Shown: positions 52,332 through 54,104 of the stretch, one piece after another | How the letters are laid out: every line of letters starts with the position of its first letter | Numbering within the stretch: the stretch's first letter is position 1 | DNA from: Stegostoma tigrinum | Lineage: Eukaryota | Direction: 5' to 3' | DNA length: 64,000 nucleotides | Assembly (NCBI RefSeq): GCF_030684315.1 | Contig: NC_081396.1 | Span: 8,795,628-8,859,627 of the forward strand | Notes under the pieces: generated by a model | The model's database searches: none | Seen by the model: only the letters and a program-made list of their open reading frames with translations | Told to the model about the DNA's origin: nothing | Made by a program: the position numbers and the translations under genes

Positions 52332-53510
52332 ATGGCAGGAAAAAGCACGGTTGGTAAACTCTGGAAATGTGGAGACTGCGGGGAGGGATTCAATTAGCCG
52401 TTTCAGGTGGAAATTCATCGACGCAGTCACAGTGGGGAAAGACCGTTCGGGCGCACCGAGTGTGGGAGAGGTAGCCCATATGCTGAAACATCAGCTGATT
52501 CACTCTGGCGAAAGACATCTTTCAAATGTTTTAGATAACAAAGTGTGTAGCTGGATGAACACAGCAGGCCAAGCAGCATCTCAGGAGCACAAAAGCTGAC
52601 GTTTCTGGCCTGGACCCTTCATCAGAGAGGGGGATGGGGAGAGGGTTCTGGAATAAATAGGGAGAGAGGGGGAGGCGGACCGAAGATGGAGAGCAGGGCT
52701 GAAGAGATTACAAGAGAGTTGCAGCGGGAGAGAGATTCCCTGAGGTTGGTCCGGAGGGAGGAGGGTAACTTCTTCAGGTTAGGCATCCCTGGAAGAGGCT
52801 TCGCAGTGAGGTTAAAATTGTATCAGTGATAATGGGAACTGCAGATTTTGGAGAATCCAAGATAACAAAGTGTGAAGCTGGATGAACACAGCAGGCCAAG
52901 CAGCATCTCAGGAGCGCAAAAGCTCATGTTTCGGGCCTAGACCTTTGGGAATTGCTGTAAAAGCTCTGAAAAACTAATGTCCCATCAGCGAGTACACTCT
53001 GGTGAGAGACCATTCAAATATTCTGACTGTGGGTCTGGGTTCAAGCGATCGTCTCAACTCACTGAGCACCAGCGAGTTCACAGTGGGGAGAAGCCGTTCA
53101 CCTGCTGTGAGTCTGGGAGCGAATTCACTTAGTCGTCCAGCCTGCTGAAACACCAGCGAGTTTACACTGGGGAAATTCTCTTCACCTGTTCCGAGTGTGG
53201 CAAAGGATTCACTAATTCATCCAACTTTTAACACACCAGCGGGCTCACACTGATGAGAGACCATTTAAATGCCCAGACTGTGGGAGGTGCTGTAAAAGTT
53301 CCAGGGAATTGATGTCCCAGCAACGTATTGACACTGATGAGAGACCGTTCAGGTGCTCGAACTGTGGGACTGGGTTCAGGCGATCATCTCAAATCACTGA
53401 ACACCAGCGAGTTCACACTGGACAAAAGGTGTGGTCACTCGCTCAGTGTGTGGGAAGGGATTTTGTCAGTCATCCAGGCTGCTGAGACACTTCCAAGTTC
53501 ATGAGGAATT
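52332..53510 (+). pseudogene. ZNF pseudogene F, with stops, frameshifts and a PLE insertion
   Basis: TTTGAACATGG start; WKCGDCGEGFN* stop; about 9 finger remnants; PLE at 52534-52943. Confidence 0.85.
52534..52943 (-). mobile_element. Non-autonomous internally deleted PLE, copy 1
   Basis: Terminus-ORF start-terminus arrangement; near-identical to 53571-54104. Confidence 0.85.
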
Positions 53511-53570
53511 ACAGCGATGGATTTTCGTCTTTGTGTTATCCAGGATTGAACCATGTTCATTTGAGTCTGT

Positions 53571-54104
53571 GATAATAAAATGTGAAGCTGGATGAACACA
53601 GCAGGCCAAGCAGCATCTCAGGAGCACAAAAGCTGACGTTTCGGGCCTAGACCCTTCATCAGAGAGGGGGATGGGGTGAGGGTTCTGGAATAAATGGGGA
53701 GAGAGGGGGAGGCGGACCGAAGATGGAGAGCAGGGCTGAAGAGATTACAAGAGAGTTGCAGCGGGAGAGAGATTCCCTGAGGTTGGTCCGGAGGGAGGAG
53801 GGTAACTTCTTCAGGTTAGGCATCCCTGGAAGAGGCTTCGCAGTGAGGTTAAAATTGTATCAGTGATAATGGGAGCTGCAGATTCTGGAGAATCCAAGAT
53901 AACAAAGTGTGACGCTGGATGAACACAGCAGGCCAAGCAGCATCACAGGAGCACAAAAGCTGACGTTTCGGGCCTAGACCCTTCATCAGAGAGGGGGATG
54001 GGGGGAGGGAACTGGAATAAATATGGAGAGAGGGGGAGGCGGACCGAAGATGGAGAGTAAAGAAGATAGGTGGAGAGAGTGTAGGTGGGGAGGTAGGGAG
54101 GGGA
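53571..54104 (-). mobile_element. Non-autonomous internally deleted PLE, copy 2, with two intact hammerhead motifs 327 nt apart
   Basis: 14-bp TSD TCATTTGAGTCTGT (53557-53570 / 54105-54118). Confidence 0.9.
53633..53663 (-). ncRNA. Minimal type I hammerhead ribozyme motif (second copy at ~53960-53990)
   Basis: CUGAUGA-A-GGGUC-UA-GGCCC-GAAA-C-GUC: conserved core, stem II, palindromic ACGU stem III. Confidence 0.65.

Follow-up and report, generated by a model that had tools for sequence, protein, structure and literature searches.

Two short insertions derived from Penelope-like elements (PLEs), here called copy 1 and copy 2, are neighbours in a 64-kb window of the Stegostoma tigrinum genome (the window being the whole stretch of DNA analysed, 64,000 nt). 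Both carry the same fusion of an open reading frame (ORF) start to a PLE 3′ terminus, with two hammerhead sites 327 nt apart. The locus raises the question of whether these copies belong to a mobile retrozyme lineage, as a preliminary description proposed, or whether the double-hammerhead cassette of copy 2 was assembled on the spot. From subfamily markers, we consider it probable (roughly 0.6) that one 327-nt unit was copied locally, guided by homology, from copy 1 into the end of a young PLE during or after the insertion of that end.

Two insertions with one fusion junction

Copies 1 and 2 are separated by 624 nt (1,037 nt in register), and in both the ORF is joined at nt 93 to the PLE 3′ terminus (Table 1). 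Either copy translates as MPNLKKLPSSLRTNLRESLSRCNSLVISSAL (31 codons) before passing into the 3′ terminus at a point 68 nt ahead of the core. Copy 2 is flanked on both sides by exact copies of TCATTTGAGTCTGT, a 14-bp target-site duplication (TSD), and contains two identical minus-strand cores (CUGAUGA-A-stem II-GAAA-CGUC) with predicted cleavage sites 327 nt apart. No TSD of at least 4 nt was found at the flanks of copy 1, which has no intact hammerhead, both of its sites being damaged.

Table 1 Features of the two insertions and their immediate surroundings, in window coordinates.
Feature	Position	Strand	Remarks
Copy 1, older PLE fusion copy	52534..52946	(-)	~1.26 units; both tails of one type; likely donor
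Damaged hammerhead core, copy 1	52598..52625	(-)	G10.1-C11.1 pair broken (C to A at 52606)
PLE ORF, first 31 codons, copy 1	52694..52786	(-)	Same fusion junction as copy 2, at 52694/52693
Dead hammerhead remnant, copy 1	52925..52946	(-)	CUGAUGA box missing (5′ truncation); GUC triplet changed to AUG
Decayed C2H2 zinc-finger array	52331..53556	(+)	Stops and frameshifts; copy 1 inside; bounds approximate
Left TSD copy of copy 2	53557..53570	.	14 bp, TCATTTGAGTCTGT
Copy 2, mosaic PLE insertion	53571..54104	(-)	~1.5 units (unit length 327 nt) and the native terminus upstream
Last 10 nt of copy 2 tail, young subfamily again	53571..53580	(-)	Letters 53580 and 53576; also in flank-anchored contigs
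Minimal copy-1-lineage tract within copy 2	53586..53907	(-)	322 nt, ~one unit
Core B, minimal type I hammerhead, intact	53635..53662	(-)	Predicted cleavage after 53635
PLE ORF, first 31 codons, copy 2	53731..53823	(-)	Fusion junction 53731/53730
Core A, minimal type I hammerhead, intact	53962..53989	(-)	Predicted cleavage after 53962
Native PLE 3′ terminus, young subfamily, host part of copy 2	54004..54104	(-)	
Right TSD copy of copy 2	54105..54118	.	14 bp, TCATTTGAGTCTGT
Inverted solo PLE end, neighbour	54638..55125	(+)	Close to young subfamily; no ORF start

Letters diagnostic of a young PLE subfamily occupy positions 54081, 54058, 54011, 54010 and 54004 in the upstream terminus of copy 2. 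Along the lower arm, non-young letters stand at four diagnostic sites out to 53586, and young letters return at 53580 and 53576. By these markers, copy 2 is mosaic, its outer parts coming from the young subfamily and its middle from the copy 1 lineage, and it can be read as a young end of 208 nt together with exactly one unit of that lineage. Its upstream arm continues for ~47 nt beyond the junction point in native, undeleted sequence, and copy 2 is therefore no plain rolling copy of the unit. With ~1.5 units present, it is not called tandem by TRF.

A gapless alignment of the two copies contains 15 differences in ~412 nt, and these are unevenly spread: 6 fall in the 322 nt of the tract 53907-53586 and the other 9 in the 90 aligned nt beyond its borders. 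The tract borders were picked after inspection of the data, and the contrast has a Fisher p of 0.001, or 0.015 when the columns that set the borders are left out. A central run of 178 nt is free of differences between the copies (p 0.002-0.018, using per-column family rates). Three derived letters are common to both copies, and a 30-mer containing two of them has 2 matches in the genome, both in the window. The haplotype of copy 1 is a natural one, as its lower-arm type occurs in 7 of 123 arms and its two tails agree. The lower tail type of copy 2 is found in none of 234 other tails.

Segmental duplication of copy 2 was ruled out, the flanks being unrelated. An assembly artefact was ruled out for the insertion ends by flank-anchored DNA contigs, which carry the diagnostic letters at 4/4 ends in run X1 (sample S1) and 3/4 in run X4 (sample S2), with no other letters within the element parts; the contigs listed include none that bridges the middle. 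This check covered four listed runs and the contigs of two samples from one study, and no unexpanded copy 2 allele was seen in those two samples.

The window contains 21 pLTR-matching segments by BLAST. An open C2H2 zinc-finger frame of 363 codons lies at 49216-50307 (-), and a CpG-rich stretch at ~51000-51700 separates it from the decayed plus-strand array. Further along, 57310-57732 and 58136-58559 form a long inverted repeat with 338-nt arms that are 96% complementary, plus outer arms of 92 nt, and it has no match to the PLE end of copies 1 and 2. Hammerhead-like cores with CUGAAGA, older or different, occur at 60638-60878, in a near-perfect fold-back, and at 24235-24264.

Parent element and young subfamily

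The parent of these insertions, judged from related copies, is an EN+ Penelope-like element. The full-length relative L045 has a single ORF with a reverse transcriptase (RT) and, at the C terminus, a GIY-YIG domain, for which Pfam gives RVT_1 at E 4e-6 and GIY-YIG at E 7e-4, both under the curated cut-off. By pattern match, a YIDD motif is present in five of six copies and YIGET in four of six. A C-x4-C-x2-C motif precedes the GIY-YIG domain in L045, corresponding to a Zn-finger-like linker between RT and EN in the available published descriptions, and this Cys motif indicates that the parent is probably of Neptune/Nematis type. Nine of the 80 ORF-start loci surveyed (see below) reach the next tail after ~3.2-3.4 kb, and the hammerhead cores of L049 lie 3,529 nt apart, consistent with a pLTR hammerhead that recurs at a distance of one monomer; the window insertions share this core. 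Truncation at the 5′ end, partial tandems, inverted arms and a tail are all present in relatives.

The upstream arm of copy 2 matches the young subfamily, with 21,431 exact 30-mer matches genome-wide. Divergence is ~0.3% in 30 of these 21,431 loci (L125-L154), a sample picked by exact match, from which the linkage of distant diagnostic letters was also taken. The tails of these loci read TCTTA in 28/30 and single-site variants in 2/30; the C and G of the upper tail of copy 2 appear in 0/30. The young subfamily was probably active recently. Its matches are often inverted pairs 0.2-4 kb apart.

Hammerhead cores and retrozyme characteristics

The cores of copy 2 have the features of minimal PLE hammerheads: CUGANGA and GAAA boxes, an extra nucleotide after A9, a G10.1-C11.1 pair, a palindromic helix III and an NUH site. 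Their helix I has 2 bp and their stem II 3-4 bp. The copy 1 sites fail this set.

The predicted minimum-energy fold is not the active one, and the motif alone is predicted to pair the core with its own cleavage site. A forced dimer fold comes to -93.4 kcal/mol, compared with -102.7 kcal/mol unconstrained (a cost of ~9 kcal/mol), and the predicted probability of an inter-copy helix III is ~0.003. Lunse et al. 2017 is reportedly the primary paper on hammerhead dimer cleavage. The predicted hammerhead minimum free energies of -6.7 to -11.4 kcal/mol lie below the threshold of -5 used by Li 2026, but in these folds the core pairs with the cleavage site. A predicted 327-nt circle shows no unusual stability relative to shuffles (z -0.47; linear form z -0.53).

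Measured against published retrozymes, the locus lacks a canonical hammerhead, two full units, a low GC content and dispersed copies related by descent. The canonical type I hammerhead (Cervera 2020) is absent; the type is minimal, with a 2-bp helix I and no Rfam match. An Rfam scan of 44000-64000 returned no hammerhead family at E 5, Rfam having no model for minimal cores. At 52.9% GC, the unit is above the <45% of known retrozymes. TRF with the Li 2026 parameters over 52000-55500 called no 327-nt array of at least 2 units. The unit length fits a tandem dimer-to-multimer of a 150-450 nt unit, but the window copies have ~1.5 and 1.26 units, and such a tandem is found only on contig C14 (described below).

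The preliminary description had assigned both insertions to PLEs with minimal hammerheads and a common internal deletion, and had given copy 2 two intact cores and its own 14-bp TSD; all of this is confirmed, by the RT and GIY-YIG relatives, the ORF nt 93/3′ terminus fusion in each copy and the fit of the copy 2 cores to the minimal type. Its placing of hammerhead sites 327 nt apart in both insertions holds for their positions, but the sites are intact in copy 2 only. Its reading of a tandem hammerhead unit needs correction: copy 2 is a ~1.5-unit mosaic of two subfamilies, not a faithful dimer, and is negative by TRF.

Recurrence of the fusion junction

The exact 30-mer across the junction has 2 matches in the 3.2-Gb genome, both in the window. 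With up to 2 mismatches there are 5 matches at 3 places (the window and C14 contribute two each, C1 one) using the looser of two search patterns, and 4 using the other. A control on the ORF side of the junction has 399 exact matches, a complete genome count. The C14 locus is an exact 2.0 x 327 dimer whose units have rare letters in common. The C14 and C1 junction copies lie in another tail haplotype and subfamily background and carry 0 derived letters of the window pair, which are confined to the two linked window copies; no dispersed copies related by descent were found beyond these two.

To judge how routine such fusions are, we surveyed 80 loci among the first 100 control matches listed (of 399), omitting loci already sampled, inverted partners in the same insertion, one C4 match and all 7 C5 matches. 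Short fusions make up 62 of the 80 loci, and their junctions are nearly all different. Two same-strand cores lie 300-670 nt apart in 14 of these 62 fusions (both strict in 3), and 11/62 repeat their own junction inside one insertion. Breakpoints on the ORF side cluster at nt 90-94, 101-105, 115-119, 123-131 and 161-164, and the focal nt 93 falls in one of these clusters. Identical junctions are shared by six pairs among 76 fusions (108 loci), or ~0.2% of pairs, and five of the six have no common rare letter in the stretch tested. From this sharing rate, and assuming 310-1,300 fusions in the genome (a range taken from the control count, the survey and 1,713 candidates), an estimated ~0.6-2.8 chance recurrences are expected for any junction; two further insertions were found. 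With clustered breakpoints and a recurrence within the range expected, finding a junction again says little in favour of a mobile family, a warning that applies wherever breakpoints behave in this way.

It is therefore very improbable that copies 1 and 2 are members of an established, dispersed family of 327-nt retrozymes. The same junction on C14, in a 2.0 x 327 arrangement, and on C1 would be expected of such a family, but its matches number just 5, at 3 places, the distant copies differ in tail haplotype and lack the derived letters, and the recurrence rate is like that of other junctions. The family reading is largely refuted, unless the assembly collapsed an array. The mobile 327-nt lineage of the preliminary description is not supported, the 5 junction matches standing against 399 for the control. 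That description had named a junction unique to the locus, through local duplication, as counting against it: the junction is not unique, as C14 and C1 attest, but the window copies are a local pair and come near to that outcome.

The sources of the junctions were considered in two further ways. No common donor-acceptor pattern, as splicing would leave, was seen by eye among the fusion junction sequences, and a long-range RNA duplex behind the ORF-side hot spots was rejected, five full-length copies having no consistent partner.

The survey also turned up several other arrangements. In seven of the 80 loci (L043, L059, L061, L079, L087, L109 and L110) the ORF start is followed by a jump to one common stretch within the ORF, at codons near 'LDIEQFF', in most cases before a terminus is reached; an RNA-duplex explanation of this recurring landing site failed. 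L055 (G000:C1:112895170-112900170) and L057 (G000:C1:114096701-114101701) form a linked pair 1.2 Mb apart with the same junction, which L055 has twice, 380 nt apart. The pair differs at 3 of 268 central nt and 26 of 256 outer nt; rare central letters are common to both, and the arms are unrelated. The C14 dimer, at L009:4679-5334 (G000:C14 near 22367378-22368033), makes two turns of 327 nt and starts one base past the usual tail end. Its two cores include one with CUGACGA, and by eye no more than a possible TSD of 4 bp can be made out. It is the best retrozyme-like candidate in the analysis. In L067 (G000:C1:188283192-188288192), tail sequence from just downstream of the hammerhead is repeated at least 10 times with a period of 46 nt, and L015 (G000:C22:42474181-42477350) has a 433-nt fusion unit three times, as an inverted dimer and a direct copy, with one junction. 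Across L012-L119, the starts of segments show a peak just upstream of the core, with 46/325 in columns 112-117, and the tail ends fall into two clusters ~35 nt apart; a further peak of starts at column 172 was taken as an alignment-edge artefact.

Origin of copy 2

Under local copying from copy 1, the older insertion would have been born as one of hundreds of short fusions between ORF start and 3′ terminus. Its structure is observed; as to mechanism, the RT probably stopped early and re-primed at a favoured ORF-start site. Copy 1 would then have aged, accumulating private changes. In copy 2, the outer parts are observed to be young, and the middle has the copy 1 junction and the three derived letters. 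A DNA end in the AT-rich tail of the young end may have paired with the tail of copy 1, and copying would have run once round the unit, through tail, hammerhead, terminus, junction and ORF start to the tail again, before homology led it back to the young end, in the manner of synthesis-dependent repair or of a template switch. A single crossover column, at 53585-53581 in the lower arm, can explain both switches. The placement of the copy 1 changes favours the direction from copy 1 to copy 2 only ~3-4 fold, with parsimony in addition. The L055/L057 pattern resembles that of copies 1 and 2, but is no clean one-unit graft, the tract being 268 nt and the unit 380 nt.

A DNA template, a nascent RNA and a circle all yield the same product and are indistinguishable from sequence alone. 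It is conceivable, if unlikely, that an RT of the young subfamily copied a transcript or cut circle of copy 1 while inserting or homing into a solo end. The product predicted from such a capture is the one observed, and the lower crossover adjoins the AT-rich tail end. Purified PLE protein, in the available text of PMC11167929, cuts at ATT, its own pLTR included, and starts reverse transcription within the RNA. Elsewhere in this genome, fusion units probably serve as RNA templates, to judge from the repeated junctions (11/62) and the C14 dimer, and segments that start at the cleavage site are in weak excess (8/56, p 0.015, uncorrected and with arms that are not independent). The repeated junctions and the excess of starts suggest cut or re-read RNAs in the PLE family, and to this extent the preliminary description's general idea of such RNAs appears to have some substance. 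The two-core cassette of copy 2 could in principle release a 327-nt RNA. At this locus, however, the RNA would have to act <1 kb from its source, and a circle would have to come from a copy 1 whose cores are both now damaged, although an uncut 413-nt read-through would be enough.

The direction could also be reversed, which we regard as improbable: copy 2 would have arisen first, through template switches, and been cut twice to give a 327-nt circle, of which copy 1 would be a more-than-unit retrocopy. Copy 1 has ~1.26 units, the terminus letters of the lower arm of copy 2 and the tail type of its upper arm at both tails, as a circle predicts, and copy 2 does have two intact cores. This order requires two template switches and the junction in copy 2, then reinsertion 624 nt away; moreover, the supposedly younger copy 1 has 9 later changes in 412 nt, compared with 5 in 534 nt for copy 2 (p 0.10), and its later changes are clustered outside the shared tract (p 0.015-0.028). 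A 2-bp helix I, and a core predicted to pair with its own cleavage site, likewise tell against the double cut. More improbable still are two independent insertions, copy 2 already two-armed, between which a short gene conversion moved the centre and the junction. The perfect central run of 178 nt would suit conversion, as would the L055/L057 tract, which is shorter than one unit, but the non-young letters of the lower arm span a full turn from the junction to 53586, which is better fitted by a one-unit graft from copy 1.

The grafting of a neighbour's unit into a solo PLE end could have a wider bearing. It is a doubtful possibility that the PLE RT homes hammerhead-bounded RNA, as a read-through or a circle, from an old fusion to the tail of a nearby young end and adds one turn. 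If this is true, any of tens of thousands of solo ends could become a double-hammerhead cassette, and copy 2, the L055/L057 pair and the C14 dimer would be successive snapshots of the route. No description of neighbour-to-end grafting of PLE units was found in the limited literature searched.

Comparison with known systems

As it stands, a known retroelement has left an ordinary product here, and earlier publications already tie PLE ends to retrozymes. What the locus offers is a worked example, in which subfamily markers reveal how a double-hammerhead cassette was assembled, here probably by recombination of an old fusion copy with a young end rather than by the spread of a circle. The comparisons that follow are with the available parts of each text.

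PMC8557442 describes insertions that EN+ Penelope-like elements leave as partial tandems with a 5′ truncation, a pLTR, a tail and an inverted copy, and also non-autonomous PLEs such as MRC1. Here, too, the parent combines RT with a C-terminal GIY-YIG, and the relatives of the window copies include truncation at the 5′ end, partly tandem copies, tailed ends and arms in inverted orientation; in contrast, the window unit retains just 31 ORF codons, and copy 2 is a mosaic with a centre common to its neighbour. Minimal hammerheads of metazoan PLEs, thought to be dimeric and of low activity in vitro, were described by Cervera and De la Pena 2014 (PMC4209133), and circular templates were already proposed there. 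In the copy 2 cores the boxes are the same, a further nucleotide separates A9 from 10.1, G10.1 pairs with C11.1 and 15.2-16.2 is palindromic (ACGU), but their helices, of 2 and 3-4 bp, are shorter than those of Schistosoma (helix I 4-5 bp, stem II 7-8 bp). In the Poseidon element of Anolis, studied in vitro (Frangieh et al. 2024, PMC11167929), internal RT start sites create tails, and the hammerhead, which overlaps the start codon, needs assistance from the PLE protein and can be dispensed with for insertion. The shark-window family likewise has two clusters of tail ends, whereas its hammerhead lies ~140 nt upstream of the ATG.

Animal non-LTR retrozymes (Cervera and de la Pena 2020, PMC7229834) have canonical hammerheads, GC below 45%, dimers to multimers and demonstrated circular RNA. 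A unit of ~300 nt between two type I hammerheads is common to them and the window; the latter differs in its minimal hammerhead, 53% GC, 1.5 units and 5 junction copies. Vertebrate non-LTR retrozymes are presented as non-autonomous PLE derivatives by Li, Clavereau and Pollet (bioRxiv 10.64898/2026.07.22.740005), who include one chondrichthyan with retrozymes (mean consensus 363 bp), propose local amplification and report in vitro cleavage for one of nine Xenopus dimers. The origin from a PLE pLTR is alike here. The window unit misses their two-unit TRF threshold, whereas the C14 dimer is called at 2.0 units, and a unit grafted from a neighbour into the end of another subfamily is absent from the descriptions in the available text of that preprint. 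Should such grafts prove common and RNA-templated, they would offer a concrete route for the origin of retrozymes from PLEs, which the preprint, as available, leaves open, and the locus may illustrate the first emergence of double-ribozyme cassettes. Set beside these systems, copy 2 functions like a PLE partial tandem and resembles a would-be retrozyme.
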